Part shown: positions 14,247-58,400 of the stretch, in pieces
How the letters are laid out: each line of letters starts with the position of its first letter
How positions within the stretch are numbered: position 1 is the stretch's first letter
The notes under the pieces: generated by a model
The model's database searches: none
Told to the model about the DNA's origin: nothing
The model's input: the letters and a program-made list of their open reading frames with translations, nothing else
Translations under genes and position numbers: made by a program
Assembly: GCA_963736115.1 (NCBI GenBank)
Contig: CAVTNR010000019.1
Coordinates: forward strand, 14,914 to 78,913
Length of the DNA stretch: 64,000 nucleotides
Direction: 5' to 3'
From: an uncultured bacterium
Lineage (GTDB): Bacteria > Zhuqueibacterota > QNDG01 > DTFT01

Positions 14247-14429
14247 GTGCCCCTACCCAAGCACAAACATTCGAAGTCCCGGAGGGACAAACGGCGCACG
14301 CACCAGAAAATCGCCGCGCCCGGCGTCGGCACGTGCTCGCACTGCCACCACCCCAAGCTGACCCATCGCGCCTGCCCGAACTGCGGGTATTACAACGGTA
14401 AAATGGTTACCGTCCCCAGGGAAGTCTGA
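14247..14429 (+). CDS. rpmF: 50S ribosomal protein L32
   Basis: GTG start. PLPKHKHSKSRRDKRRTH ... CSHCHHPKLTHRACPNCGYYNGK. Confidence 0.9.
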   Translation: MPLPKHKHSKSRRDKRRTHQKIAAPGVGTCSHCHHPKLTHRACPNCGYYNGKMVTVPREV

Positions 14430-38966: not shown

Positions 38967-41900
38967 TCAGGCCCCCGCCTTCATAAACACATCCAATCTT
39001 CTGATACCGCCTGTCCTTTCGAAAACAGCCTCGCTCCATTTGCGCTCCAGAACCAGGCCGGGTGTCTCGATTTCCCGTTCGTCCCTCATCTTCATCCGGA
39101 TTTTTTCCAGGCGCGACCGGTGCAGAACCACAGGCACCTGGCAGAACGTGTAAGCCAGAGTCCCGGCTTCCAATGCGATCTGCTCTGTTCCGCCGTCCGC
39201 TCCGATGCATTCGAAAATTTCCGGCTTTTTCAGGAATTCCGCGAAGTCCAGCAGTTCCGCGCCGAATGAAAGCTTTCCGTCCGCGATCCGAATCCCGAGT
39301 TCCGCGAGACGGATGAGAATGTCCTCCTTCACCTGGCCGGTCATGCCGGGCTGCTGCACGCCCGCGAATCCCGGCGTATGGGAATAGGGGTCCGTGGGAA
39401 ATGCGCCGTACCGGTCGGGCTGCTTGTGCACGCCGATGCCTTCCCGTATTTCGCGTGTGCGCTTCTTCAGCCGCCGGATGACGGCCGGGTCCGCGCCGGA
39501 ACGCAGGGCTTCGAGAACCGCCTCCTGGCCGGCCAGGCAGAGCTTGGACACCATGTGCCAGTAAATGCAGCCGAGTCCCTCGTACTTGTAGAATGTTCCC
39601 GAACGGCCGGTGAATGACTTGTGGTCGAACATCCGCTCATACAGACCGAGCAGGAACGGCGCTTCCTTCTGCGCCGCTTCCCGCCATTCCGGGTCTTCCA
39701 GGTTTTGAAGAGCCTTCAGAAGGTGTCCGGCGTTCCGGAAATCGGCGTTGAAGTGCAGAACGCCACTGGAGTCGGCCGTCACGATGCGGCGGTCGTTTTC
39801 AGCCGCGCATTTCCGGAGGAAGACCGATTCCCGCACTGCTTCGGCCGGGATGATGTTCTTTTCCGTGAAACGGGGGAGCCTGCGGTCCGGATACAGGAGG
39901 TAGCTGTTCTGGTCCTTGCGGTGGAGGCGGCTCGACCGGAGCGCATCCAGCACATCCGCGCATTCCTCCGCTTTGAGCAGGCCGGAGCTGAGGACCGCGA
40001 CCTGGCCCTCCAGCATTTCGTACAGCCTGCGGATGGAGATCCCGCCGTCCGGCTCCACGGTCATCAGGTTATAGGCGTGGTAAAGTCCGTCCGGCCTCCG
40101 GTTGGCCCGAAGGGTGCTGTCCGCGGCCCGGAGCGCGAGGCCGCAGAAAGCGGAAAGGTCCGCGAGGCTTGTCTCCCGTTTTTCCCCGGACAGGCCTTCC
40201 GCATACAGCTTCGAACGGAATTTGCCTGCCGCTTCTCCGAACCGGTCCAGCGCTTTCCGTCTCCGGACGTCCGTCATCGGTTCATCCGGTCCGGACACGA
40301 GCGATTCGAGCGCGGACCGCGTCGCGTCGAGCCAGTCCGAGACCTCGGCCGCGAGCGGAACCGGGTCCGGGCCGGAACGGTCGAGCAGGTCCCGGAAAAA
40401 GGACAGGTACCGCCGCATGTGGCACAGGGTGACCACGGATACGCCCGATCCGACCAGGGCGTTGTTGGCGTCATTCCATTCAGGCCTCTGGGTGTTCATC
40501 CAGATGCCGGCTTCGGGCATGAAATTCGCGAGCTTGGCGAGAAGGGGAACCAGCATTTTTTCCGCCAGGCCGGCCCGCACCCGGACGCCGTCCGGCCGTG
40601 TGAGGAATTTCCCGTCCTCTCCGATCCCGCGAACACGCTCCCGGACCCGGCCGTCCTGTTCCGCGTCGAAGCGGATGGTGTCGGCTGGATCGCGGATCAG
40701 GTCCGCGTAGGGCCGGATCCGGTAGGGCACGTCCGCATACGTGAAGAAATCACGCCGGAACAGGCCGGACAGCATGCCCGGATGATACCGGTCCGACCAT
40801 TCCAGCAGGCGGAGCAGGTAGACGATCTGGTGATCGCCCCAGTACCCGATGTAGGACCAGGGATCGGCCGGATCGAGAACCTCCCAGTCGAATCCGTCGC
40901 GGGTCACGCGGTAGGGATTGTACCCGTCGGCAGTCGAGGCGTCGACGAATTTGGCGATCATGCTCTCGATGAACCCCGGGAAGCTCTGGGCCAGCGCTTC
41001 CCAGTTCTGGAACAGGTCGCGCCAGTTGCCCTGATAGTTCAGGACCTTGCGGCCGAACCTGTCCTTGATGCCGATGGAAAACAGATTCCAGGGCCTGCTG
41101 GGATCGCCGTGCCTGCGGCTGAAGGTGAGCGGAAGATACTCGAAAGCCAGGCGTTCGAGATCGGGATCCCCTGCGGACGCGGCACGGGAGAGGAGCTCCC
41201 CGTGCGGGAGCGTGACGGGAAGCGAACGGAGCCATTCCGCCTGTGTCCGGGCCAGCGGCCGGTTCGCTTTTTCGACAAAGTCGCGGAAGTCGGATGCGGT
41301 GATGGCGGTTCCGTTGTCCGGGATGCCGCCGCGCATGACATTGAACAGCACGTTTGAAAAGTGCCTGGACGCGCTGAGCCGGTCTGCCGTGGCCTGCCGG
41401 CCGTCCGCGGCCGCCACTACGGCCTCGATGCCGGCCGTGCCGGCGGCGATATCCTCCAGAATGAGCTCCTGCAGGTCCCCGGGACGATGGAGTGTCCCGG
41501 ACAGGTCCGCCACGGCGGCCGAGTCCAGGCCGACGTCGGCCGCGAAAAACCATTCCCGGCCCGTGGACGGCTTGAGCAGGAAGCCGGTCGCGGCGAAATA
41601 AGCGCCCCGAACGCCGCGCATGTCTTTTTCCGGACGCAGCGGTCGGCCGCTCCTGAAGGCTTCCAGTTGCAGGGATGAAAGGATGTGTGTCGGCCGGACC
41701 AGGCCCGCGCACCAGACCGCTGTCGCGCGAAGGGATTCGCTCGGTTCGGCTTTGTCCGTGGGCACCGAACTCAGGGTGAACAGCCCGAGCCCCGTGTCCT
41801 CCAGCAGTTCGTTCTTCTTGTATCCGTCGGCAAGCGTGCTGTATTCGAGCTGAAACCGCCGCTGGATGCCGTCCGGCAGCAGGTTCTGCATCCCGTCCAT

Positions 41901-42422
41901 AATTTCGACGCGGGCTTCGCGGCGGCCGATATTGACCAGGAACGAGTGCTTGATAAATCCGAACCGTTCGCCCGTCATCCAGGCGGTGCGGAAAACGAGC
42001 CCGAGATCACGGTTGACTTCCTCGAACATCAGCTTGTTGCCGGTGGCGTTCTTGTACAGATTCCGCTCCGTCCGGAATGCGGCAGCATCCCGAGCGGAAA
42101 AGGGCTCCCACACCCGGATCCGGGAACCGGACTTCAGACGGACGATGGTTTTGGAACCGGTTATTTCCGCGGAATCGTGGATCTTATCGTCGGTCACGTA
42201 GGGGAAGAGAGCGTGGTCCGGGTCCCGGCGGCCCGCGGTCAACCCGCCGTTGCTCGAAATGAACATCCAGTGGTCGGACCCGCTGACCAGACTCACGAGA
42301 AAAGGCGGCATGCGGTCGACGTTCGAAATCCGGTACCAGGATTCACCGTCGATCGTGACGAAACCGCCGGTCACGGCTTCGGCTTTTTTTGTGCTTTTTG
42401 AGGCGTTTCGGACAGACCGCAT
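38967..42422 (-). CDS. Large cytoplasmic GH94-clan-like putative glycan (beta-1,3-glucan?) phosphorylase
   Basis: 1151 aa from Met20 of the ORF-track product (the upstream 19 codons are REP-encoded). No signal peptide. ...YIGYWGDHQIVYLLRLLE ... NTQRPEWNDANNALVG resembles the (D/E)WND catalytic-region motif of GH94-type phosphorylases. Same strand and locus as GH17 and a GPH transporter. Confidence 0.45.
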   Translation of the reverse strand: MRSVRNASKSTKKAEAVTGGFVTIDGESWYRISNVDRMPPFLVSLVSGSDHWMFISSNGGLTAGRRDPDHALFPYVTDDKIHDSAEITGSKTIVRLKSGSRIRVWEPFSARDAAAFRTERNLYKNATGNKLMFEEVNRDLGLVFRTAWMTGERFGFIKHSFLVNIGRREARVEIMDGMQNLLPDGIQRRFQLEYSTLADGYKKNELLEDTGLGLFTLSSVPTDKAEPSESLRATAVWCAGLVRPTHILSSLQLEAFRSGRPLRPEKDMRGVRGAYFAATGFLLKPSTGREWFFAADVGLDSAAVADLSGTLHRPGDLQELILEDIAAGTAGIEAVVAAADGRQATADRLSASRHFSNVLFNVMRGGIPDNGTAITASDFRDFVEKANRPLARTQAEWLRSLPVTLPHGELLSRAASAGDPDLERLAFEYLPLTFSRRHGDPSRPWNLFSIGIKDRFGRKVLNYQGNWRDLFQNWEALAQSFPGFIESMIAKFVDASTADGYNPYRVTRDGFDWEVLDPADPWSYIGYWGDHQIVYLLRLLEWSDRYHPGMLSGLFRRDFFTYADVPYRIRPYADLIRDPADTIRFDAEQDGRVRERVRGIGEDGKFLTRPDGVRVRAGLAEKMLVPLLAKLANFMPEAGIWMNTQRPEWNDANNALVGSGVSVVTLCHMRRYLSFFRDLLDRSGPDPVPLAAEVSDWLDATRSALESLVSGPDEPMTDVRRRKALDRFGEAAGKFRSKLYAEGLSGEKRETSLADLSAFCGLALRAADSTLRANRRPDGLYHAYNLMTVEPDGGISIRRLYEMLEGQVAVLSSGLLKAEECADVLDALRSSRLHRKDQNSYLLYPDRRLPRFTEKNIIPAEAVRESVFLRKCAAENDRRIVTADSSGVLHFNADFRNAGHLLKALQNLEDPEWREAAQKEAPFLLGLYERMFDHKSFTGRSGTFYKYEGLGCIYWHMVSKLCLAGQEAVLEALRSGADPAVIRRLKKRTREIREGIGVHKQPDRYGAFPTDPYSHTPGFAGVQQPGMTGQVKEDILIRLAELGIRIADGKLSFGAELLDFAEFLKKPEIFECIGADGGTEQIALEAGTLAYTFCQVPVVLHRSRLEKIRMKMRDEREIETPGLVLERKWSEAVFERTGGIRRLDVFMKAGA

Positions 42423-42436
42423 TAGTATTCCCTCAT

Positions 42437-42474
42437 GTAGGTCCGATATGCCGAGCGTAGCGAGGCTATCGGAC
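42437..42474 (-). repeat. REP hairpin copy (inverted orientation, begins GTAG)
   Basis: GTAGGTCCGATATGCCGAGCGtaGCGAGGCTATCGGAC. Its reverse complement differs from the copy at 43139-43176 at 3 positions, two of which form a compensatory A/T pair. Confidence 0.8.
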
Positions 42475-42479
42475 ATCAA

Positions 42480-42989
42480 TTATTCCGGATTCATCCCGCG
42501 TATGCCGGGGATTTCCTTCCAACCCCATCCGAACTCGTAATGACCTTGCTTCACGAAATCAATATAACTGGAATGGGGCCATCGCTCCGGTTTGTCTGTC
42601 AATCCGTGTTTGACCGGGTTGAAATGAATGTAATCCAGATGTCTGTTTATGTCTTCATGATTTCGGATCACATGGTCGTAGAAACGATGTTGGGCGAGAG
42701 TCACGGGAGTCCTGATCTGATGATGACTCTTGAAATTGCATGTAAAATTTCGGCGAAGAGATTGAATGATAACGGAGAGTGCGGATTGTTCCGGTTCCAA
42801 AAGAAAGTGAAAATGATCAGGCAGAATGACATAGGCATATAACCGGTGGGGATAATGTTTGCGGACTCTGGAGAGGGTGTCCATCAGGATGCCCGAATTG
42901 ACCGGATCGGAGAAGATGGGTTGTCGATCATGGTTGACGCACGTTATGAAATACACCGCTCCGATTATATGGTAACGGCGAATATCCAT
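42480..42989 (-). CDS. REP-associated tyrosine transposase (RAYT; IS200/IS605 TnpA-like, Y1 HUH)
   Basis: 169 aa. HUH motif in ILPDHFHFLLEP. Catalytic-Tyr region RHLDYIHFNPVKHGL. RFYDHVIRN. Immediately flanked by REP hairpins. Confidence 0.85.
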   Translation of the reverse strand: MDIRRYHIIGAVYFITCVNHDRQPIFSDPVNSGILMDTLSRVRKHYPHRLYAYVILPDHFHFLLEPEQSALSVIIQSLRRNFTCNFKSHHQIRTPVTLAQHRFYDHVIRNHEDINRHLDYIHFNPVKHGLTDKPERWPHSSYIDFVKQGHYEFGWGWKEIPGIRGMNPE

Positions 42990-45609: not shown

Positions 45610-45769
45610 GAGGACCTCCAGAGTCGGAGATGAGCGGAAAGGGCGGGCGGAAGTCCGCCCCGGGGTCGTCCTTCTGCCTCCGGAAAATGGCCCGGAGGCG
45701 GCCGGACGCTTCGGATTAAAGTAGAGATTTTTAAACGGATTGTCAAGGGAGAGGTTGGCCGGAGTGTCC

Positions 45770-45798
45770 GACCCCGGGGTTCACCCAGGGGTCGGAAT
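45770..45798. repeat. GACCCCGGGGT palindrome doublet, copy 1
   Basis: GACCCCGGGGTtcACCCAGGGGTCGGAAT. Confidence 0.6.
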
Positions 45799-45903
45799 GT
45801 AAGACAACAGTTCTGACAATATAATACTTGATTTTTTCCCGTATCCCGGTTATACTGAAATAACCATCCGTTCTGCACATTGAACTACTGGAGGAAGCCG
45901 GTC

Positions 45904-47112
45904 ATGAGCGATTCATCGCAGAACCGCAGGGATTTTCTGAAAACCGGACTGGCCGGCGCGGCCGGGTTTGCGCTTCTGGGGCGCCGCGATCTGTCCGCCG
46001 GGGCGTTGAAAACGGGAGACCGGAAACCGGCCGTCCGGACGCTGGGTCGGACCGGTATCCGTCTGCCGGTTGTGAGCATGGGCGCAGGGGACACCCAGGA
46101 CCCGGCCTTGGTGACGGCCGCCCTGAACGCGGGCATCGTTCTGATCGCCACATCCGCGTACTACTACAACGGCCAGAACGAAAAGATGATCGGCCAAATC
46201 ATGAAGGGCCGGAAACGCGATTCCGCGGTGATCATGACCAGCGCCATGGCCGACGGTTTCGACCACAAGGCCGGTAACTGGACCGCGTCGACCAAGGCCG
46301 AACCCTTTGTGCAAAAGTTCGAGGGCTGCCTGAAGCGGCTTGAAATGGAAACCGTGGACATCTTCCTGCTGCCTTTCGTGGCACGGCGGGAATCCGTATT
46401 TTTCGAACCGCTGCTGAAAGCGATGGAGAAGATCAAACGGGAAGGGAAGGCCCGTTTCATCGGCGTGGCCACGCACCAGTTCGAAGATGAGGCGATTCGC
46501 GCGGCTGCTGAAACCGGAATTTACGACGTGGTCATGACGGCGCTTAATTTCCGGAAGGACAACCGTCTGGAGATTCTGGCGGCAGCGGAGGCGGCTTCGA
46601 AAGCCGGCATGGGCGTCATTGCCATGAAGACCATGGCCGGCGCATTCTGGGATAAGGAAAAGACCAGGCCGATCAACGCGGGGGCCGCGCTGAAATGGGC
46701 GGTCCAGAACCCCAGCGTAACCACGGCCGTTCCGGGAATGACCACCTATGAACAGCTCACCGCGGACGTTGCCGTGATGCGCGATCCGTCCCTGACGGCC
46801 GGGGAGAAGGCGGAACTCCAGCTCACGCACGGCGCTCCGGCGGACGGACCCTTCTGCCAGCAATGCGGGAAATGCGTCGGCCAGTGTCGTGACGGGCTCG
46901 ATATTCCCACGATGATGCGGAGTTACATGTATGCGTACGGGTACGGCAATCTGGACCATGCCCGTCAGACGCTTCGCCTGGCTGAAAGACCTGAGAAAAT
47001 CTGCGGGGAATGCAAGACGTGCGCCGTCCGATGCCCCATGCAAGCGGACGTGCGGGGCAAGATCAGGGACATCGTGCGGCTGGAGAGCCAGGATTTGAAT
47101 CGGATGGCATAG
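45904..47112 (+). CDS. Tat-exported aldo/keto reductase with C-terminal Fe-S (Cys-cluster) domain
   Basis: Twin-arginine signal SQNRRDFLKTGLAGAAGFALLG. AKR body. C-terminal CQQCGKCVGQC ... CGECKTCAVRCP. Confidence 0.75.
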   Translation: MSDSSQNRRDFLKTGLAGAAGFALLGRRDLSAGALKTGDRKPAVRTLGRTGIRLPVVSMGAGDTQDPALVTAALNAGIVLIATSAYYYNGQNEKMIGQIMKGRKRDSAVIMTSAMADGFDHKAGNWTASTKAEPFVQKFEGCLKRLEMETVDIFLLPFVARRESVFFEPLLKAMEKIKREGKARFIGVATHQFEDEAIRAAAETGIYDVVMTALNFRKDNRLEILAAAEAASKAGMGVIAMKTMAGAFWDKEKTRPINAGAALKWAVQNPSVTTAVPGMTTYEQLTADVAVMRDPSLTAGEKAELQLTHGAPADGPFCQQCGKCVGQCRDGLDIPTMMRSYMYAYGYGNLDHARQTLRLAERPEKICGECKTCAVRCPMQADVRGKIRDIVRLESQDLNRMA

Positions 47113-47115
47113 AAG

Positions 47116-47164
47116 AAAAAAACCTCCCGCGGGCTCCTGAAGTCCGCGGGAGGATGAAAATTTT
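47116..47164. terminator. Terminator hairpin between convergent AKR and blaR1-like genes
   Basis: AAAAAAA-CCTCCCGCGG-gctcctgaagt-CCGCGGGAGG-atgaaaatttt. Read on the minus strand, the stem is followed by T7. Confidence 0.6.
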
Positions 47165-47212: not shown

Positions 47213-47241
47213 GACCCCGGGGTCAACCCCGGGGTCGCCGG
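47213..47241. repeat. GACCCCGGGGT palindrome doublet, copy 2
   Basis: GACCCCGGGGTcaACCCCGGGGTCGCCGG. Confidence 0.6.
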
Positions 47242-47254
47242 CTACGGAATCCGG

Positions 47255-50200
47255 TCACCGGTTCACCGCCCACAGGAGTTCCACCTTCCACGAGCCATCC
47301 GCCTGTCTTTCCCGCATCGCCTTGCGGGGGTAACCCGTGGCCGTGTATCCGTTCATGGTGAAATTCAGGCTGTAGCTCCACCAGAAGGGCACGGGGATAT
47401 CCAGATGATCGCCGGTATAATGGGCGCACGCCCACTGGCGGCCGTGCCTCCATTCGATCCGGTACGGATCTTCCACCTTCACTTCGTTTTTAATCTGCAC
47501 GCCCACGTCCCAGACCAGGTCCTCGGCGGGCGTAATCTCCGGACTGTAGTGGTACTGGATGAACACGTCGCCGAGCGTTTCGATTCCCCTCTTTCGGAGG
47601 TAGGATTCGAGCCTGCGGATCGCCTCGTCCTCTCCTTTCCAGTCCCCCTTGCAGGGGAGGATCAGTTCAAGACATTCCTTATCGGAACGGAAGAACACCT
47701 CGACTGGCGGGTACGGATCTTTCATGCGCTCCACGGGCAGTTCCGCCACGAGGCGTTCCGGTTCGCGGTTCATTTCCGGAATACCGCCGGTCCAGATCAG
47801 AACCTGCGGATGCAGGATGCGGTACTGGTTGTGGTAGGCCCATGCCGCCATTTGCATTGAGAACGTCTTCTGATCGAACCCTTTCCGGTACTGGATGCGG
47901 ACCACGTTCCGGACGGGAACCCGTTCGCACTTGAACGGCGGCTTTACGGCTGCGCTGTCCGCGACGGGAAAGCCCGCTTCCCACTGCAGCTCAGTCTGGT
48001 TCACCGTCTCAACGCTGTAATACTGCCGGGTAAACGGCGTTCCGGCCGGCTGGATGCCGAGAGCCTTCAGGGTATTCAACAGCTTCTCGAACACCACCGG
48101 ATGCTGGGCCAGGGATCCGCTGACCGGGAGGAGGACCGCCCAGTAGGGATTCGTCGATTCGACCCGGAAGAGAGGTTTTGAGTCGTCCGTGGCCGAAAAG
48201 CCGGAGAAAAATCCGGAAAGCCTTTCCTTCCAGCCGGGCGCGGAATCGGTAGCCTCCGCATTCCCCGTGCTGGAAACAAACGAGCCGGCCACGTCGGAAT
48301 TGACGATCAGCGCCTCCGTGAATCCGCATTGCACCGCTTGCTTTTTCAGAAGTTCGGCCTCCGCAAGGGTCCGGCAGTCCCCGATACGGATCATGCGGTT
48401 CGGCGGTTCGAATATCAGGTAAACCGGCGTTTTCAATTTCGACATCGCATCGTCCCATGTCTTCCGTGCGATTTTTTCTTCGGTCGTGGAGACGAGCTGG
48501 ACGCGGTATCCCCGGAGCGCCGTGGTGCGGTTGTCAGGACCGGTGGACTCTTCAGAGAATCGGTTTCTGCCGGACGGTGTCCCGGAAGAATAGTCGGCCG
48601 GAAATCGTCTGCCCCGCGCGGCCACTGCTTCTCCGTACGCCTGCATGCCTTCGGCGAATTCCCCGACTGAAACCACAGGCATGAACCATTCGGTTTTGCG
48701 TATCCGGCCTGCGTTCCGGCGAGGGCCGTCCTCCCAGGCCTGGCCGACCGGACCGGCGATCAGAAAACCGCTCATTAACGTCCGGGTGATAAAGGCCGCG
48801 GCCGGGAATTCCTGATCCGGCGGATACTTGAAATCCACGGCAGCGATGGTGTCCTTCTCGAAATACCGGAGGACAAACGGCGGATCCACTCGGAGATCCG
48901 TTCCCGGTGGATTCAGTTCGCATGCGATTTCCCACTGCAGTTGGTCGGGAGTCACCTCGGACGGATTGCTGTAAAAGAGCCGGAACCACCGGTTCGTCGC
49001 CGGAAGTCCCTTCTCGCGGATGATCCGCTTCATCCGTGACCGCGCGTCGTCCAACCGGGAAAGCGGACCGGTCACCGGTAGAGTCAGGGCCAGGACGGCC
49101 TCGGTTTCCCGGAATTGAACGTCCAGTCCCGGGTAACCTTCACCCGGCCTGAATGCCTGAATCCGCATCTCAGTGTTCTGCCAGAAAGGTTTCGACCCGT
49201 CCCAGTTACGAAACACTTCCACTGCGGGCGGGAAGGCGGGAACCAGGCCCTCGGCCTGAACTGCTTCCACGAAGGCTTTCCAGGTTCCAACCGTGGTCAG
49301 CATCCCCTGAACATCCGTCACGGCCTCCCGGAGTTCTGGGATGCGGGCGATTTCGAGCGGCGGTTTCGCTTCGGCGTCCGGGGATACCGGGACTCCCACT
49401 TCCCATATGCTCCGCTCGTCCGGCACTTGCTGGCCGTCCGTCCATACGCGGAAGAAGAAGTCCCCGCGGGGCTTGAGGCCCTGCTTCTGCATGCGTTCCT
49501 TCAATTCCGTCAGAGCCCCTTCGAGCTGGGCATTGATGCGTCCGAAGCGGGTCAGCAGGACCACCGTCCGCGGCTCCGTGGTCTCCAGCCGAATGCGGAA
49601 GTCCGCGGGTTCGGCCTGGCCGCCTTCCGTGACGTTCAGAACGACGGGCCCCTCGGTGCTGAATTGAATGGTTCGGACCGGATCGTCCGGCAGGAGGGAC
49701 ACGGAGCGGGGCGACATGGGCAGGAACGCGGCCGCGACGAAGAGACTCGCGCCGGCGGACGCCGCTGGAATCCACCGGCGCCGCTTCCAGACATCCTTCT
49801 CCAGCCATTTCAGCCGCGACACCAGCCGGAACGGCTCCTCGAACACGCCGAGCAGGCCGAGTCCGGGTTCGACGTTCTCGGTCAGGAGGTCCTTGGCGGT
49901 ATTCAGCAGGGTGTCGCGGTATCCGCGGGTTTTTTCGCGCAGGACGCCGGCCACGCTGAGGTCGCAGCAGATTTCACGAACGTGCTTCATCTGGCGGCGC
50001 GCCCAGATCAGCAGGGGATTGAACCAGTAGACCACATGGAGCACCAGGTACAGGCCGTGCATCCACAGGTCGCCCCGCTTGAGATGGCTGAGCTCGTGCA
50101 GGAGCACATGACGGGCCTCGTCACGCGACAGATTTTTCAGATAGCCCGATGGGAGCAGCAGCACGGGCCTGAACATACCGTACACGGCGGGTGTGGCCGC

Positions 50201-50794
50201 GTCCGGAGCGAATACGATGGCCGGGACGCGGCCCAGCCGCAGGGTTTTTGCGGTTTCGACCAGCATCCGGTAAAACCAGTCCGGAACACGGTCGTCGCGG
50301 TGCAGGCGGTGCCAGCGTCTCAGGCGCGCCATTTTCAGAATCAGCAGGAAGGCGAACATGGCCATACCGCCGATCCAGACGAGAAAAACCATGGTTTTCG
50401 CGGTCAGGCCCGCGGCCGCGCTGTCCCCGGCCGGGACCGATGACGTTCCGAACACGCCGGAGAGCGGCATCCGGTCCGGGCGTCGTGCGGTTTCCGGTTC
50501 CAGCCGTACGGATGAAGCGGCAGGTACGAGCTTTTCAACCGCGGTTCCGGTCACCGCGGACCGGAGCTCCGGTTCGACGCGGGAGAATACGCTGAATGGA
50601 GAGGCCAGGGTCGGGGGCAGGAGCAGTTTCAGGAGCACCAGCAGCCACACCGCGTACCGCACCTGCGGCCACACCCAGCGCCGGCCGGCCCAGTCCAGAA
50701 CTCCGATCAGAACAATGAGCAGGCTGACCTGCCAGAACATCGGCGCCATCCAGGCCCACCAGATTCCGGCCCAGTTATTGAGTGTCGCGGCCAT
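47255..50794 (-). CDS. BlaR1/MecR1-family M56 metalloprotease signal transducer with a non-canonical ectodomain of about 815 aa (4 GyrI-like modules + SPOR-like domain)
   Basis: HELSH zinc motif at aa 233-237 inside a polytopic N-terminal region. Last TM about aa 343-360. Four internally repeated modules each contain an F-x-x-x-Y...P-x-x-L-x-WE/D-x-G-x-P/Q-V/I block. SPOR-like segment at about aa 760-833. The start overlaps the blaI-like gene by 20 nt. Confidence 0.8.
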   Translation of the reverse strand: MAATLNNWAGIWWAWMAPMFWQVSLLIVLIGVLDWAGRRWVWPQVRYAVWLLVLLKLLLPPTLASPFSVFSRVEPELRSAVTGTAVEKLVPAASSVRLEPETARRPDRMPLSGVFGTSSVPAGDSAAAGLTAKTMVFLVWIGGMAMFAFLLILKMARLRRWHRLHRDDRVPDWFYRMLVETAKTLRLGRVPAIVFAPDAATPAVYGMFRPVLLLPSGYLKNLSRDEARHVLLHELSHLKRGDLWMHGLYLVLHVVYWFNPLLIWARRQMKHVREICCDLSVAGVLREKTRGYRDTLLNTAKDLLTENVEPGLGLLGVFEEPFRLVSRLKWLEKDVWKRRRWIPAASAGASLFVAAAFLPMSPRSVSLLPDDPVRTIQFSTEGPVVLNVTEGGQAEPADFRIRLETTEPRTVVLLTRFGRINAQLEGALTELKERMQKQGLKPRGDFFFRVWTDGQQVPDERSIWEVGVPVSPDAEAKPPLEIARIPELREAVTDVQGMLTTVGTWKAFVEAVQAEGLVPAFPPAVEVFRNWDGSKPFWQNTEMRIQAFRPGEGYPGLDVQFRETEAVLALTLPVTGPLSRLDDARSRMKRIIREKGLPATNRWFRLFYSNPSEVTPDQLQWEIACELNPPGTDLRVDPPFVLRYFEKDTIAAVDFKYPPDQEFPAAAFITRTLMSGFLIAGPVGQAWEDGPRRNAGRIRKTEWFMPVVSVGEFAEGMQAYGEAVAARGRRFPADYSSGTPSGRNRFSEESTGPDNRTTALRGYRVQLVSTTEEKIARKTWDDAMSKLKTPVYLIFEPPNRMIRIGDCRTLAEAELLKKQAVQCGFTEALIVNSDVAGSFVSSTGNAEATDSAPGWKERLSGFFSGFSATDDSKPLFRVESTNPYWAVLLPVSGSLAQHPVVFEKLLNTLKALGIQPAGTPFTRQYYSVETVNQTELQWEAGFPVADSAAVKPPFKCERVPVRNVVRIQYRKGFDQKTFSMQMAAWAYHNQYRILHPQVLIWTGGIPEMNREPERLVAELPVERMKDPYPPVEVFFRSDKECLELILPCKGDWKGEDEAIRRLESYLRKRGIETLGDVFIQYHYSPEITPAEDLVWDVGVQIKNEVKVEDPYRIEWRHGRQWACAHYTGDHLDIPVPFWWSYSLNFTMNGYTATGYPRKAMRERQADGSWKVELLWAVNR

Positions 50795-51167: not shown

Positions 51168-51186
51168 AGGGGCTCTCCTTGTTTTC

Positions 51187-51247
51187 TACAACCGTAAAAA
51201 ATATACTACATCCGTAGAAGATTGTCAAGCGATATTTTACATTTGTA
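51187..51247. promoter_or_regulatory. Three BlaI/CopY-type operator boxes (TACA-N2-(T/C)GTA)
   Basis: TACAacCGTA (51187-51196), TACAtcCGTA (51207-51216), TACAttTGTA (51238-51247). Each box is embedded in tTCTACA...GTAGAAg-like extended dyads. Confidence 0.55.
51200..51228 (-). promoter_or_regulatory. Consensus sigma70-like promoter of the blaI-blaR1-like operon
   Basis: The minus strand reads TTGACA, 17 nt, TATATT. Operator box 2 lies in the spacer, box 1 just downstream of -10, and box 3 upstream of -35. Confidence 0.55.
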
Positions 51248-51260
51248 GAAGATCGCCCCG

Positions 51261-51317
51261 GACCCCGGGGCCGCAGGTCGCACAAGCAACCCCGGGGTTG
51301 ACCCCGGGGTCGGAATT
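51261..51317. repeat. GACCCCGGGGT palindrome repeats, copy 3 (one single + one doublet)
   Basis: GACCCCGGGGcc ... AACCCCGGGGTtgACCCCGGGGTCGGAAT. Confidence 0.6.
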
Positions 51318-52151: not shown

Positions 52152-52503
52152 GAAGGAGTCGGGTGGACCGGGATCGGTTGACGGCGTGTTGTGGGTCAGA
52201 CCGCCTTTGATGATTCCTGAGCAGCAGAACGCGGGATTGCATGACGATCTCAGAACCGAAGGTCCGGAGGCGGGATTTTGGGAATTTGCGCAAATTGGTT
52301 AAAGAATTGCAATTTTTGGCTTTCTTTTCTGGTTCCTGTGTTTTATTTTAAAACCGAATCAATCATTCCTCATTCCCGGTGACTCATTGTAACTCATTTT
52401 CTCTGCACAGGATTTCAAAGCAGAGAATAGTAATTTGTTGTTATATTTGATAGCGTTTAAGTAATCCATTACTTTGGCGTTTAATTTCTACAAGGAGGCA
52501 GTC

Positions 52504-55466
52504 ATGCGGGCGCAAGGATTTTTGGATCGTCTCCAATGGAGCGGTCTGTGCCTGGTTTTTGCCGCGACCATGGCATTCGCAGGCAACACGGGAAAGATCT
52601 CCGGTGTTGTTTCGGATGCCGGCGGTCGCACCGGGCTTCCCGGAGCAAACGTCATTATTGAAGGCACCGCGATCGGGGCCGTGGCCGACCTGGATGGTCG
52701 TTTCGCCATTCTGAACGTCCCGCCCGGCATCTACCGGGTCAAGGCCAGCATGATCGGTTATCGGACGATGATCGTCCAGAATGTCCGCGTCTCCGCCGAT
52801 CTCACTACCGCGCTCGACGCAGCGCTTCAACCCACCACTCTCGAGTCAGGCGAGACTGTGACCATCACGGCCGAGAGGCCGCTGATCCAGATGGACAAGA
52901 CCTCGTCGCTCGTCTCCGTGAGCAGCGAAGAGATCAGGAACCTCCCGGTTCAGAGCATGAACGATGTTCTGGAACTGCAGGCCGGAGTCGTGCGGAGCGG
53001 AAACGATTTCCATATCCGCGGCGGCCGGGCAGGGAGGTGTCCTACTGGGTGGACGGCGTCGCCACCAACGAAGTGTACGGCGGCGGAAACGCCGTCACGG
53101 TCGAGCGGTCGGCGGTTCAGGAGATGCAGGTGGTCAGCGGCACGTTCAATGCCGAATACGGCAACGCCATGTCGGGCATCGTCAACCTGATCACCAAGGA
53201 GGGCGGTCCGAAATGGGAGGGACAGCTGAACGTCTATACCGGCGATTATCTGAGCGACGACAAGGTGTATTCCGTGCTGAAGGGGGTCGGGACGCGATGG
53301 GACGCGGCGGAACAGAAAACGACGGCTGTGGAGCGTCTCGAAAATCCGCTTCGGAATTTCAACCCGACGATGAACGCCGAACTCAACCTGAGCGGACCGG
53401 TTCCCCTCACCAACCGGAAACTCTCACTGCTCGTGAACGGACGCTTTTTTTCGCAGGAGGGATACCTCTACGGACGGCGATGGTACTACCCCCAGGGGAT
53501 CCGCGGCGACAGCGCGCTGGTCCCGCTGAGTCCGTACGAATCCTCCTCCGGCATGGGAAAGCTGAGCTACCGGTTGAGTTCCGGAATCAAGGCCAGTTAC
53601 AGTTTGTTTCTCAACCGAAGCCGTTCGGAACACTACTACAATCACGCCTTCAAATACAATCCGGACGGGACCGCCGGCGGGAGGGGCTGGGGGAACACCC
53701 ACCTGTTTTCCTGGAACCATGTGCTGTCATCCAAAACCTTCTACGAGGCCCGTGTTTCCCGCGTGCAGAGCAGTTATCGCAACTACCTCTACGAAAACGC
53801 GACCCTGTCGCCGACGTACCGCATCTATGTGATCGGCAATGAAACCCAGCCGGCGCAGATTCTGCCCTATGATCTCAATTCGGCCGCCGCGGACTCGGCG
53901 CTCGAGGCCCTGGCAATTGAGGGAAGGTCGTTCACCTACGTTCCTGATGCCGGGACCCGCGACGGGTATGTACACCCCGATTCGCTGAGGGATCCCGCGT
54001 CCTACAGCTTCTGGCGCGCGGGCACTCAGGGAGGCCGGTCGAATCGGACCACGTCTTACTGGATCGCCAAAATCGATCTGACCAGTCAGCTCAATCCCAT
54101 CCATCAGTTCAAAGCCGGTTTGGAAGCGCGGCTGCACGAGCTGAAATATGACAATTACACGCTGCAGCCGGCCCGGAAGGAGGGCAAGGACGAACCCATC
54201 GTGCCCTATCAGCCCTGGGTGCCGCCGTCATCCAACATCTATCACGATCTTTACACCCGCCGGCCGCGCGAGTTCTCGGCCTACATCCAGGACAAGATCG
54301 AGCTGAAGGACATGATCGTGAACATCGGACTGCGGTTCGACTACTTCGACGCCAACGCCTCGATGCCGGTCGATCCGCGGGATCCCAGCATCTATTCGCC
54401 GTTTCAGGATCAGTTCCTGTACGTCAATCCCGCCGCTGATTCACTCGTGGAATATACCCCCGACCAGCGACGGGCCTTCATGCAGGAAAAGGTGGGCGGT
54501 AAAACCCATTTGTCTCCCAGGCTCGGGGTCGCCTACCCGATCACGGACCGCGGCGTGGTCCATTTTTCCTACGGGCACTTCTTCCAGATCCCCGAATTCC
54601 AATACCTGTACGCGAATCCCGACTTCAAGCTGATCGTCGGCGGCGGGCGGAACATACTCGGCAACGCCGCGCTGAATCCCCAGAGGACCGTGGAGTATGA
54701 AATCGGATTTCAGCAGCAGCTGTCCGACCAGGTCGCCGTCGACATGACTCTTTTCTACAAGGACATCCGGGACTGGGTGGGCACGGGTCCCGTGATTGAG
54801 ACGCTGAAACCCAGCGTATCCTACGCGTTGTACGAGAACAAGGATTATGCGAACGTGTACGGTCTGACGCTGAACCTGGACAGGCGGTTCCAGGGCCATT
54901 TCGGGGCCGGACTCGCGTACGCCTTCCAGATCGCGGAGGGGACCTATTCCAATCCCACCGACGCCTTCAACGCCCTTCAGAACCTGCAGGAACCCCGGCT
55001 GGCGATGATCCCCCTGAACTGGGACCAGCGTCACACGCTCACCGGCATGGGGACGACCGGATTCGCGGGCTGGATCGCCACCCTCCAGTACAAACTGAGG
55101 TCGGGGCGTCCCTACACGCCGTCGTACGCGAGCGGATCGTTGGTCGGAGAGTCCACTTACAGCGGGCTCCGGGACAACAGCGGCCGCCTTCCGAACACCA
55201 GTCAGTTTGACCTGATGCTCCACAAGCGGTTCAGCGTCGGAACCGCGAACGTCGGATTCCTGGTCACCGTGTACAATCTATTCGACCAGAAGGGCGAAAC
55301 CTACGTCTACACCGAGACCGGTTCGGCCCGTTACAGCGCCAATATCGATCCGCAGACCATTCCGTACGACGCAGCGCGGGTGGGAACGGTGGAGGATTAC
55401 CTGCGCCAGCCGACCTGGTTCATCCCGCCGAGGCATATCCAGGCCGGTTTCACGGTTGAATTCTAA
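52504..55466 (+). pseudogene. TonB-dependent receptor with N-terminal carboxypeptidase-regulatory-like domain; one -1 frameshift
   Basis: ATG 52504 after AAGGAGG. Signal peptide. CarbopepD_reg-like GKISGVVSDAGG ... GIYRVKASMIGY. The plug ...NDFHIRGGRAG continues in another frame as EVSYWVDGVATNEVYGG. The junction is at GGG run 53032-53034 (one G apparently missing). The barrel ends ...IQAGFTVEF. Confidence 0.85.
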
Positions 55467-55490: not shown

Positions 55491-58400
55491 ATGAAAAAGA
55501 CCACAATCGGCTGGATCGCGGCCCTCTTCCTGGGTGTCGCCGTCCGGGCCGTCGCTCAGGACTCAATGGCCCGGCTGCATGGTGATGAAGACAACAGCGT
55601 CAGCGGCCTGCACTCGGGCAACCAGATCAAGGCCAGCTTTTACAATGACGGACTGCTCGGCAAGCGGTACGTGGCCGTCACCGACATCGGCGGCGAATGG
55701 CCGATCAATTCAGGCCATGTCTACATCAACCAGCAGGTCATGTTTGTCGGGGCCGAGGTCAAGAACGACGAAGGCAGCACCATCCATATCGTTTCCGAGG
55801 GGAACGGATGCTCGGCAGGCAACTCCAACAACGCCGACTCGGGGGATTCGGGCCCCAACGGCGAATGGTATTCCATGACGCCGCTTCCGGGATTCCACAA
55901 TCCCCAGCCGCCGGCGGAAAAGAGCGCCAAACCCCGCATCGCCATGAGCCATTGGGAATGGTCCTGGCCGTCCAGCTGGCCCGACAAGACCGAGGACGTC
56001 ACGGACCCGGGATGGCCGGGTTCCTGGAACGGGTATTTCGGCAAGGGCGTGATGAACGCGGACCAGGAAAGCATGTATTACATGGATGACTACAACAACC
56101 GGGAATTTTCATACTATCCCGATTCCACGGACACCCAGCGGCGCGGTCTGGGGCTCCGCGGGCAGGTGCGCGGTTTTCAGTGGTCCAACGTCCTGGTGGA
56201 GGACATTCTGTTCCTCCTGTACGACGTGAAGAACATCGGCACCCGGGACCTGACCAAGATGAATTTCGGCATCATGTCGGGGCCGATCATGGGCAACACG
56301 GCGACCGGGGGCGGAAGCGAGGGCTCGGACGACGGCGGCGCTTACGACCTCGAGATGGAGATCGGCTACCACCTCGACCAGGACAACCTCGGGTACGGCG
56401 GATGGAACGTGGGATTCCTGGGGCAGGCCTTCTTTGAGAGTCCGGGCAACCCCTATGACGGCATCGACAATGACGGGGACGGGATGAACGGCCCCGGTCC
56501 GGTCATCACCCAGAGTCTGTTCGACCCCCGTCCGGTTCAAGCCGGCGACAACGTGATCGTGATCGACTATGTGACGTTTGCCCGAATCCATCGCGCAGAT
56601 GCCCGCCGCGGGTGCTGGACATTCCGTTCCAGGGCCGCATCGCTTCACATCGACGCGGGACAGGATCTTGTCGAGATCGCCGAACAACCTGTTCGACGAC
56701 AACCTGAACGGCATCATCGACGAAAACAACGGCTCCACATTCGGCGAGGGCGACGCACGCCGTTGTCGCGGTTCCTGTACGAGGGCCTGAAATACATCGA
56801 CTACTTCACGGGCGCCGGAAGCACAACAGCCTCGTTGACGAGCGGCGTGACGACGGCATCGACAACGACGGCGACTGGGACATCCTCACCGATGACGTGG
56901 GCATGGACGGCGTCGCGCGGTCCGGTGATGCCGGCGAAAAGGACGGTGTGCCCACGTCCGGAAGGGGCACGCTCTTCCGGGCGAACCGCATATCGACGTC
57001 ACCGACATCAACGAGTCCGACCAGATCGGCCTCGACAGCCTTCAATATCTACACGCCCTGGACGCTCTATCCGCTGTCGGATGACGAGAAACTCTGGACC
57101 GCCATCGCGCCCGGCTACCTGAACGCGATCGGGCAGATCGGCGACACCGACATCCTCGTCGGTTCCGGGTATTTTCCGCTCAAGGTCGAACAGACCGAGC
57201 GGTTCTCCGTCGGCGTGATATTTTCCAGCAGTCTGGAAGATCTGTACCGGAACAAGCGTTACGCGCAGAAGACCTATGTGGAGAACTACAATTTCTCCAA
57301 GGCTCCGATCATCCCGACCTGACCGCCGTGGCCGGCGACGAGCGGGTGACGCTGTACTGGGACGACGTGGCGGAAGGGTCCATCGATCCCATCACCGGAA
57401 AGGATTTCCAGGGTTACCGGATCTACCGGTCCACGGATCCCGGATTCAACGATATGACGTCGATCACCGACGGATTCGGATCCGCATCGTACCGGAAACC
57501 GGTCGCCCAGTTCGATCTCGAGGACGGGATCACTGGGATTCTCGGGAATACATGTCCGCGGGGTTCATTTCTGGCTGGGCGAGGACACCGGTCTCCAGCA
57601 TGTCTGGACGGATGAATCGGTCCGGAACGGTCAGAAATACTATTATGCCGTGACATCCTACGACAGTGGATCCGATTCCCTGGGCATCGCGCCGACGGAA
57701 TGCTCGAAATATATCTCCATTTCACAGGACGGCGCGATTGACAAAGGGAAGAACGTGGCCATCGTGCGGCCCGAGGCGCCCTCCGCCGGATATCGGGCCA
57801 GCGGACCGGACCTCGTGCGGCTGCTGCCCGGCGGGGCGACGAGCGGAACCGTCGAAATGCAGGTGATCGATCCCGCGCTGGTCAAGGGCGGCCATCTCTA
57901 TCGCATTACCTTCGAGGAAAGCCTCAAAGTGGTCAAGAGCTTCGCGGACACGCTGTATACGAAACGGCTGACGTTCACGGACGTCACGGCCGGGTCCGTT
58001 CTATACGGTCCCGAGGACTGGACGGGACTGGACCTGACGCTTCCCGTGGTCGACGGTTTCGAACTCACGCTTCGAAACGAGGCTTCGCTGGCGTTCGATT
58101 CGGCTTCGAGCGGCTGGAGCCGGCAGGGGCTCTACGCCTTCACCGTGACGCCCTACGCCTATCGGGAGGAGAAGGAAGGGCCGCTGGCCCGCGACTTCGA
58201 TGTGGTGTTCGGCGGGTTTGCCGGTTTCGATTCCTCCCGTACGTTTTTCAGGAGGGGGAGGGACCTGGCGGGAAAACCGGTCAATTTCACGGTCCTGGAC
58301 GCGGAGACGCATGAGCGCATGCCGTTCGGCTTCTACGAGGCGGACGGGAACGACGGCGTTTTCAGCGGATACACCGTGAAAACCACGACGGACGAGATCA

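Follow-up and report, generated by a model that had tools for sequence, protein, structure and literature searches.

The subject of this analysis is a pair of adjacent genes, blaI and a blaR-like gene, on the reverse strand of a 64,000-nucleotide stretch (the window) of contig CAVTNR010000019.1 from an uncultured bacterium of the Zhuqueibacterota. The blaR-like gene encodes a protein of 1179 amino acids (aa) in which an M56 sensor-protease of the BlaR1/MecR1 type is followed by four GyrI-like modules and a predicted SPOR domain, in the position where BlaR1 carries its penicillin-binding protein (PBP) sensor. We consider it probable, with some reservation, that the two genes constitute a self-repressed BlaI/BlaR-type module in which the beta-lactam receptor has been exchanged for another periplasmic input, with a ligand triggering the relay. 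The protein clearly belongs to the M56/BlaI family in its wider sense, within which it is an uncharacterised variant; it is not a BlaR1 in the strict sense, as the PBP sensor by which BlaR1 proper is defined is missing from it, and it is very likely functional. An earlier note on this stretch, made from the sequence alone, had read the protein as a normal BlaR1/MecR1-type protease over its N-terminal ~360 aa (HELSH at aa 233-237), without a PBP sensor, with four extracytoplasmic modules of the GyrI-like/SOUL fold, with a SPOR-like domain between modules 2 and 3, and as an intact open reading frame (ORF) coupled to an intact BlaI repressor gene. Each of these assignments is borne out by the evidence below, and the module borders found here lie within a few residues of those it gave.

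The reading frame at 47255..50794(-) is unbroken, and its N-terminal part was assigned by Pfam to Peptidase_M56 (PF05569, aa 22-303) with an E value of 1.8e-39 and 136.1 bits against a gathering cut-off of 31. Four hydrophobic helices lie at about aa 15-33, 45-63, 135-153 and 342-360, the protease core at aa 154-341 being predicted to be cytoplasmic. Residues H233, E234, H237 and E274, which represent the HExxH motif and the downstream Glu of a gluzincin, are invariant across 73 aligned homologues, and the spacing of 37 between H237 and E274 equals the H205-E242 spacing of Staphylococcus aureus BlaR1. An AlphaFold2 model built from 73 homologues had a mean predicted local distance difference test score (pLDDT) of 80.8, and when it was searched with Foldseek against the PDB its N-terminal part resembled the cryo-EM structures 8exr, 8ext and 8exp of S. 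aureus BlaR1. The predicted periplasmic loop between the second and third helices is poorly modelled (pLDDT <50 at aa 83-126) and shares 51-84% identity over aa 64-131 with the four full-length close orthologues P0001-P0004. A Pfam scan of the 1179-aa protein found no PF00905, PBP or beta-lactamase domain, the KTG/KSG motif is absent from it, and the Foldseek search against the PDB gave no PBP-like match for the model. The NCBIfam model blaR1_generic, the cut-off of which is 400 bits, scored 111 and was covered only at positions 22-270 of 585.

The region of ~820 residues that follows the fourth helix comprises two tandem pairs of GyrI-like domains, with the SPOR domain in a flexible linker between the pairs. 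The predicted topology places aa 361-1179 outside the cytoplasmic membrane, owing to the positive-inside rule (7 and 8 K/R residues in the segments bordering the protease core versus 0-2 in the predicted outer segments) and to the similarity that Foldseek found between the N-terminal model and BlaR1 as solved by cryo-EM; the C-terminal sensor of BlaR1 likewise lies outside the membrane after its fourth transmembrane helix. Independent support for an extracytoplasmic location is provided by the secreted proteins among the relatives of the modules.

The modules, here named G1 to G4, were assigned to the GyrI-like fold by profile, by model and by structure search. The whole protein matched Pfam GyrI-like at E=1.3e-17 and 64.9 bits over three stretches, the Pfam hits comprising PF06445 and PF14526, and when the modules were scanned singly G1 and G4 exceeded the gathering cut-off of 26 bits, G2 fell below it and G3 was not matched. 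Borders were set with a family hidden Markov model (HMM) built from homologues, and G2 and G3 were joined to the family because of their scores with this HMM and because of pairwise similarity, which amounts to 33% identity over 85 aa for G1-G3 (E=2e-11) and to E=2e-8 for both G2-G4 and G3-G4. The most divergent module is G2, with at most 59% identity to any orthologue. All four modules were modelled at pLDDT >90 with the repeated E-E-H-E-E/E-E-H-E-E elements of a double SHS2 fold (beta-alpha-beta-beta twice), and against the PDB they gave target-normalised template-modelling (TM) scores of 0.70-0.78 to the stand-alone proteins SbmC, CTR107 and CtaZ. The GyrI-like matches in this search included CTR107 and its rhodamine-tag derivative, STM3175, SbmC, CtaZ, BrlR, EcmrR, BmrR, SAV2435, Cass2, Lin2189 and SOUL, and CTR107 and SbmC were also reached by the module profile at the level of sequence. 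The nearest solved structures are those of small-molecule binders, namely CTR107 with rhodamine, STM3175 with albicidin, CtaZ with closthioamide, BmrR and SbmC, and the nearly invariant W-[E/D] strand motif of the family and the Glu of its last strand are retained in 4/4 modules.

An exhaustive search of 1.84 billion representative proteins with the module HMM yielded 1255 relatives, 385 of them at E<=1e-10. Signal-peptide-like N-termini were present in 64 of the 77 short complete relatives and lipobox-like motifs in 10 of the 77, and by this comparison the modules are part of a clade of GyrI-like domains that is secreted for the most part. The same clade supplies the periplasmic domain of an anti-sigma-like protein (P0168), the gene of which overlaps a sigma factor gene of the extracytoplasmic function (ECF) type, and it occurs as the N-terminal, periplasmic part of LytS-type histidine kinases, one of which (P0162) is encoded ahead of a LytTR regulator gene. 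Modules are also found C-terminally on secreted beta-lactamase-family serine hydrolases (P0170) and fused to NTF2-like domains and PD40 propellers; the relatives listed were P0161, P0162 and P0199 (L010), P0168 and P0171 (L008, L009), and P0170 and P0160. That three unrelated signalling chassis employ the same extracytoplasmic domain is the best argument available for an input role, and it supports the view that the modules are ligand-binding input domains. This secreted GyrI-like clade, as a modular periplasmic input, is a more general and more interesting point than the rare SPOR domain discussed below. A bolder proposal, which we advance tentatively, is that the modules represent a hitherto unrecognised and widespread class of extracytoplasmic sensory domain that is plugged interchangeably into M56/BlaI relays, ECF sigma/anti-sigma pairs and LytS/LytTR systems; its pairs would be shuffled and fast-evolving and would act as diversifying periplasmic receptors for xenobiotics or natural products in uncultured KSB1/Calditrichota-like bacteria, the receptor being tethered to the wall by SPOR in the present case.

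The second component of the putative relay is encoded by blaI, which lies upstream of the blaR-like gene and overlaps its start by 20 nt. From end to end the repressor can be aligned with structures of MecI and BlaI (1sd6, 1okr and 1sd4; MecI residues 7-120, BlaI residues 7-126), and its C-terminal helix PLMS-FLIED is aligned with LVLN-FVEKE of MecI, within which the published N-F cleavage site lies. The operon is preceded by a sigma-70-type promoter with three operator dyads (TTCTACnnnTGTAG-type), one upstream of the -35 element, one within the spacer and one just after the -10 element, as compared to 0.14 matches expected. The promoter block, dyads included, is conserved in the related metagenome-assembled genomes (MAGs) L002 and L004 save for one spacer substitution in L004, and the sequence further upstream is not. 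As the dyads occur in the operon's own promoter, and as the flanking genes are divergent on one side and convergent on the other, blaI and the blaR-like gene appear from the sequence to be a two-gene autoregulated operon; blaI is also found directly upstream in distant members of the family (L005, L006). An operator-like sequence at 14391-14402(-), TTTACCGTTGTA, has one mismatch to the blaI operator pattern and no obvious promoter, and was treated as a chance occurrence.

The domain in the linker was identified as SPOR through comparison with its orthologues. Pfam SPOR (PF05036) matched 6/6 orthologous copies (best E=7.2e-5); a Pfam scan of the 181-aa segment at E<=10 gave no SPOR match, the match appearing only with the trimmed 82-aa domain and the orthologues. 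When a profile of the six copies was searched against 5.8 billion proteins just two were found, both SPOR-annotated, P0121 (E=5.7e-9) and P0122 (E=9.6e-3), which exceed the Pfam SPOR cut-off at 28 and 32.6 bits, respectively, and hhalign aligned the six-copy profile with P0121 at 98.8% probability (E=7e-17). Residues 762-835 are predicted to form a beta-alpha-beta-beta-alpha-beta unit (DSSP E-H-E-E-H-E in both models) for which Foldseek gave FtsN (1uta, TM-score 0.67/0.71, root-mean-square deviation 2.6) and CwlC (1x60, E=1.1e-2) among its best matches; comparable scores are reached by generic folds of the ferredoxin-like, PII and ACT types, such that the SPOR fold alone is not specific. In a search of PDB sequences with the mid-domain profile only CwlC was found, and its E value of 0.97 is not significant by itself. 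An identity as TYW3 was rejected, as the best match (1.3e-4) covered 57/211 profile positions, lay below the cut-off and concerned a cytoplasmic eukaryotic/archaeal enzyme. The Gln of strand beta1 (Q766, in GYRVQL) is invariant in all six copies, and this Gln is the one highly conserved SPOR residue that contacts N-acetylmuramic acid/N-acetylglucosamine of the glycan (FtsN Q251, RlpA Q270; PMC6895207). On the strength of these comparisons we assign aa 762-835 to SPOR, with glycan binding as a prediction. The domain occurs only in the window protein and P0001-P0005, i.e. in six closely related protein clusters, and in the other four-module orthologues its position is taken by a low-complexity linker of 40-93 aa; SPOR is an insertion and a rare feature of this small clade.

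The combination of M56 with GyrI-like domains was present in 68 among the best 120 homologues, and these 68 derive from KSB1, Calditrichota and unclassified MAGs. Most members of this family carry two modules, others three, four, five or six, and some have NTF2-like or beta-propeller additions. Two types of module pair can be distinguished, type A (G1-G2) and type B (G3-G4); two-module proteins carry either type A (n=29) or type B (n=11), and four-module proteins are A+B. Close orthologues reside in syntenic loci with flanking genes that are 85-96% identical at the protein level. Their M56 domains are 84-94% identical and their modules down to 52-59%, in a mosaic pattern: the B pair of the window protein is 95% identical to that of P0001, 62-68% to those of the SPOR-less P0006/P0007 and 52-59% to those of the SPOR-bearing P0002-P0005, G1 has the opposite pattern with respect to SPOR-bearing and SPOR-less orthologues, and the M56 domain and G1 are nearest to P0002 and P0005. 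This mosaic identity speaks for an exchange of modules, for diversifying selection or for a combination of the two.

The operation of the probable BlaI/BlaR-type relay may be envisaged as follows. A ligand in the periplasm would bind one or more of the GyrI-like modules; the likeliest candidates are small molecules of hydrophobic or aromatic character, for example xenobiotics or natural products. Binding would alter the ectodomain and the way in which it touches the membrane domain, upon which the protease on the cytoplasmic side would become active and would cut the repressor in its C-terminal helix (PLMS|FLIED region, near S95-F96), with consequent derepression of the operon together with regulon members elsewhere in the genome. 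SPOR, an accessory of the small clade only, would probably tether or position the long ectodomain on denuded glycan strands. Several points weigh against this reading. Beyond the architecture we infer the mechanism by analogy with BlaR1/MecR1, for ligand, regulon and cleavage alike, and the fold of the modules may also serve in binding gyrase (SbmC) or in enzymes. The inter-domain geometry of the AlphaFold2 model is unreliable (predicted TM-score 0.42). The SPOR copy of the window protein itself reached only 14.1 bits (E=0.061) against a Pfam cut-off of 21, and by eye it appears to lack the aromatic/basic pair which some orthologues keep at the positions of W283/R285 of FtsN. No further TACnnnnGTA dyad that would point to regulon members is present in the 64-kb window, and neighbourhood comparison across the family found no conserved effector gene beside blaI-blaR. 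Conservation of the neighbourhood, a matter raised in the earlier note, holds for the close orthologues, which are syntenic, and for the adjacency of blaI, which extends to distant members; the other neighbours vary across the family, and the genomic context therefore names neither ligand nor regulon. In addition, GyrI-like folds can bind proteins, as is the case for ExiB (PMC12744356).

The last point leads to an alternative that we regard as unlikely, if deserving of attention, in which the modules recognise a peptide or protein such as a bacteriocin, toxin, envelope protein or partner lipoprotein, and the BlaR-type relay answers a proteinaceous signal. ExiB binds the glycine zipper of its toxin by the same cleft (PMC12744356), SbmC, found by Foldseek as 1jyh, is a gyrase inhibitor, and the fast mosaic evolution of the modules would suit an arms race against a protein ligand that varies; however, the closest relatives in both sequence and structure are small-molecule binders, and no candidate partner is encoded in the neighbourhood. 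A sensor of cell-wall status, in which SPOR on denuded glycans, and perhaps a muropeptide or glycan on the modules, would report amidase activity or wall damage, seems improbable to us. It would account for the SPOR domain located centrally within the ectodomain, and other M56 proteins bear wall-related domains such as M23 and Amidase_3 (PMC13492132), but the restriction of SPOR to six closely related clusters, with a low-complexity linker elsewhere, rules it out as the family's core input. We also know of no GyrI-like protein that binds peptidoglycan.

Slightly less probable again is a role of the ectodomain as a periplasmic sponge or enzyme for a toxic compound, with the M56 part mainly serving as an anchor, for which STM3175, CtaZ, AlbA-type binders and cyclopropanoid hydrolases such as Lin2189 are precedents. 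Among the Foldseek matches there are indeed STM3175 and CtaZ, which confer resistance by binding, and Lin2189, a hydrolase, and relatives of the modules are fused to secreted beta-lactamase-family serine hydrolases (P0170). Signalling is nevertheless indicated by the invariance of the M56 catalytic residues, by the invariably adjacent and autoregulated blaI gene, and by the delivery of the same modules to anti-sigma factors and histidine kinases. An assembly artefact, decaying or chimeric and devoid of function, might be suspected in the case of a metagenome-assembled contig with mosaic module identity; we find this barely credible, as the exact protein is present on independent contigs, as the full-length, intact architecture of four modules and SPOR recurs, at 65-80% identity and in syntenic context, in four or more further MAGs or metagenomes, and as all domains are confidently folded in the AlphaFold2 model.

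The system resembles the BlaR1/MecR1-BlaI/MecI systems of S. aureus and Bacillus licheniformis in its four-helix M56 gluzincin with HExxH and downstream Glu, its extracytoplasmic C-terminus after the fourth helix, its adjacent repressor gene, the TACnnnnGTA-type dyads overlapping the promoter and the alignment of the repressor, including the cleavage-helix region. It differs from them in that the PBP/transpeptidase sensor is replaced by four GyrI-like modules and SPOR as input, in that the repressor gene comes first, in that the ectodomain would face the periplasm of an apparently diderm organism, and in that no beta-lactamase or PBP2a target gene adjoins the operon. Non-canonical BlaIR systems, such as CenIR of Clostridioides difficile, mycobacterial Rv1845c/Rv1846c and M56-TonB_C proteins, likewise combine an M56 protein that has a non-beta-lactam C-terminus with a BlaI-like repressor, but their C-termini are short, disordered, or of the TonB_C, M23, Plug or amidase type. 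The modules share the double-SHS2 fold with SbmC/GyrI, BmrR, Rob, EcmrR, BrlR, CTR107, SAV2435, STM3175/YgiV, CtaZ, Cass2 and SOUL, whereas these characterised binders are cytoplasmic effector domains or stand-alone proteins and the modules are predicted to be extracytoplasmic and occur in four tandem copies. With FtsN, DamX, DedD, RlpA and CwlC the SPOR domain shares the RNP-like beta-alpha-beta-beta-alpha-beta fold and the beta1 Gln, and it is homologous to SPOR proteins that exceed the Pfam cut-off; it differs in being embedded centrally in the ectodomain of a sensor, instead of forming the C-terminal end of a protein of division or lysis, and in that the window copy scores below the Pfam cut-off.

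The earlier note had implied that loss of the beta-lactam sensor is exceptional, had called GyrI-like domains mostly known as cytoplasmic and had not recognised the architecture as a described one, and these points require revision. In a 2026 study of CenIR of C. difficile covering ~15,000 M56 proteins in 254 architectures, a transpeptidase sensor was present in only ~6% and a BlaI-like gene was near 96% of them, so that loss of the sensor is the rule; GyrI-like is not among the M56 architectures with at least 100 entries (PMC13492132). The modules fall into the largely secreted clade described above. Our literature search found no paper that pairs GyrI-like with BlaR1, and no sensor of this kind was described in the literature pairing GyrI-like with 'periplasmic' or 'signal peptide', the one published secreted GyrI-like protein being XAC1230 of Xanthomonas citri, which was reported without a ligand (PMC11786466). 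The combination of M56 with GyrI-like is nonetheless common and already catalogued through automated annotation, members being named 'beta-lactamase regulating signal transducer.../DNA gyrase inhibitor GyrI' by JGI. Owing to the ~6% figure, to this common, automatically annotated architecture and to the membership of the modules in a secreted clade, the novelty is smaller than first thought.

BlaR1-type relays are usually viewed as beta-lactam sensors; the present ectodomain offers an unusually readable clue to the signal, as the characterised relatives of its input domains bind drugs, dyes and natural products. If the tentative proposal of a widespread sensory class is true, the GyrI-like fold would join Cache, PAS and four-helix-bundle domains as a general sensor of small molecules in the periplasm, and modular biosensors might be drawn from the secreted clade; a rhodamine tag (PDB 9rtm) has already been engineered from CTR107, which is structurally a near relative. 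The SPOR insertion, for its part, suggests a way of positioning a sensor on the cell wall. The coordinates of the features of the operon and its borders are collected in Table 1.

Table 1. Features of the blaI-blaR operon and its immediate borders in the window
Feature	Position	Strand	Basis and remarks
Sigma-70-type promoter TTGACA-17-TATATT of the blaI-blaR operon	51200..51228	-	11/12 consensus matches; conserved in L002, L004
Three TACnnnnGTA operator dyads	51186-51196, 51206-51216, 51238-51248 (span 51186..51248)	-	BlaI/MecI-type
blaI/mecI-type winged-helix repressor gene, 130 aa	50775..51167	-	Penicillinase_R (PF03965) 6.3e-32, 110.8 bits
blaR-like gene, M56 sensor-protease, 1179 aa, ectodomain of four GyrI-like modules and SPOR	47255..50794	-	Intact ORF, Pfam, AlphaFold2
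M56 gluzincin domain with four transmembrane helices, aa 1-360	49715..50794	-	Pfam E=1.8e-39, Foldseek, invariant catalytic residues, K/R-rich flanks
Periplasmic loop between helices 2 and 3 (predicted), aa 64-131	50402..50605	-	Mostly disordered, fast-evolving
HELSH zinc-binding motif, aa 233-237	50084..50098	-	Sequence and homologue alignment
GyrI-like module G1, aa 400-547	49154..49597	-	Pfam 3e-6, 28.0 bits; family HMM 8e-45; pLDDT >90
GyrI-like module G2, aa 558-707	48674..49123	-	Pfam 6.8e-4, 20.4 bits, below cut-off; family HMM 3e-38
SPOR domain (assigned by homology), aa 762-835	48290..48511	-	In disordered linker between module pairs; Pfam on orthologues, profile, hhalign, Foldseek
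GyrI-like module G3, aa 875-1021	47732..48172	-	No Pfam match of its own; family HMM 5e-45; pLDDT >90
GyrI-like module G4, aa 1032-1177	47264..47701	-	Pfam 1.1e-6, 29.5 bits; family HMM 3e-45
REP-like GC palindrome GACCCCGGGGTCAACCCCGGGGTCG	47213..47237	+	Just downstream of blaR
Inverted copy of the REP-like palindrome	51288..51312	-	Upstream of the operon promoter; conserved in L002

The operon is flanked by a divergent radical-SAM gene and by a convergent gene (45880-47112(+)), at the end of which a strong hairpin is located (47123-47152). The convergent gene codes for an aldo/keto reductase with a twin-arginine translocation (TAT) signal and, at its C-terminus, a 4Fe-4S dicluster domain; such an exported fusion of aldo/keto reductase and ferredoxin is unusual. 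GC-rich double palindromes resembling repetitive extragenic palindromic (REP) elements, GACCCCGGGGTCAACCCCGGGGT[C/T]G, bracket blaI-blaR as inverted copies, with a degenerate copy at 45768-45795, and ACCCCGGGGT occurs five times against 0.17 expected, always in intergenic positions around the operon; these palindromes could serve as terminators, could be REP elements or could testify to mobility. An ORF of 169 aa at 42480-42989(-) encodes an IS200-like Y1 transposase (Pfam Y1_Tnp 1.4e-5) and has a counterpart in the same place in L003 that is 76% identical at the aa level. This conserved position, together with REP-like palindromes close by, suggests that the gene is a domesticated one of the REP-associated tyrosine transposase (RAYT) type rather than an active insertion sequence. 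Immediately downstream of it an ORF of 1170 aa (38967-42479(-)) has no Pfam match at E<=0.01 and is ~65-80% identical at the aa level to its counterpart in L003.

On the other side of the operon, positions 52474-55466(+) carry an ORF with a CarbopepD_reg-like N-terminal domain and an ORF for a TonB-dependent receptor barrel, which overlap at 53037-53190, followed by an ORF of 543 aa without a Pfam match (55491-57122(+)). A read-through of 53037..55466 into 55491..57122, suggested by a shared frame and a single tblastx high-scoring segment pair, was rejected, as a TAA stop, a ribosome-binding site and an ATG separate two genes. The CarbopepD_reg-like, barrel and 543-aa proteins are ~95% identical in L002 and L004, and the barrel and 543-aa ORFs may represent a SusC/SusD-like pair.

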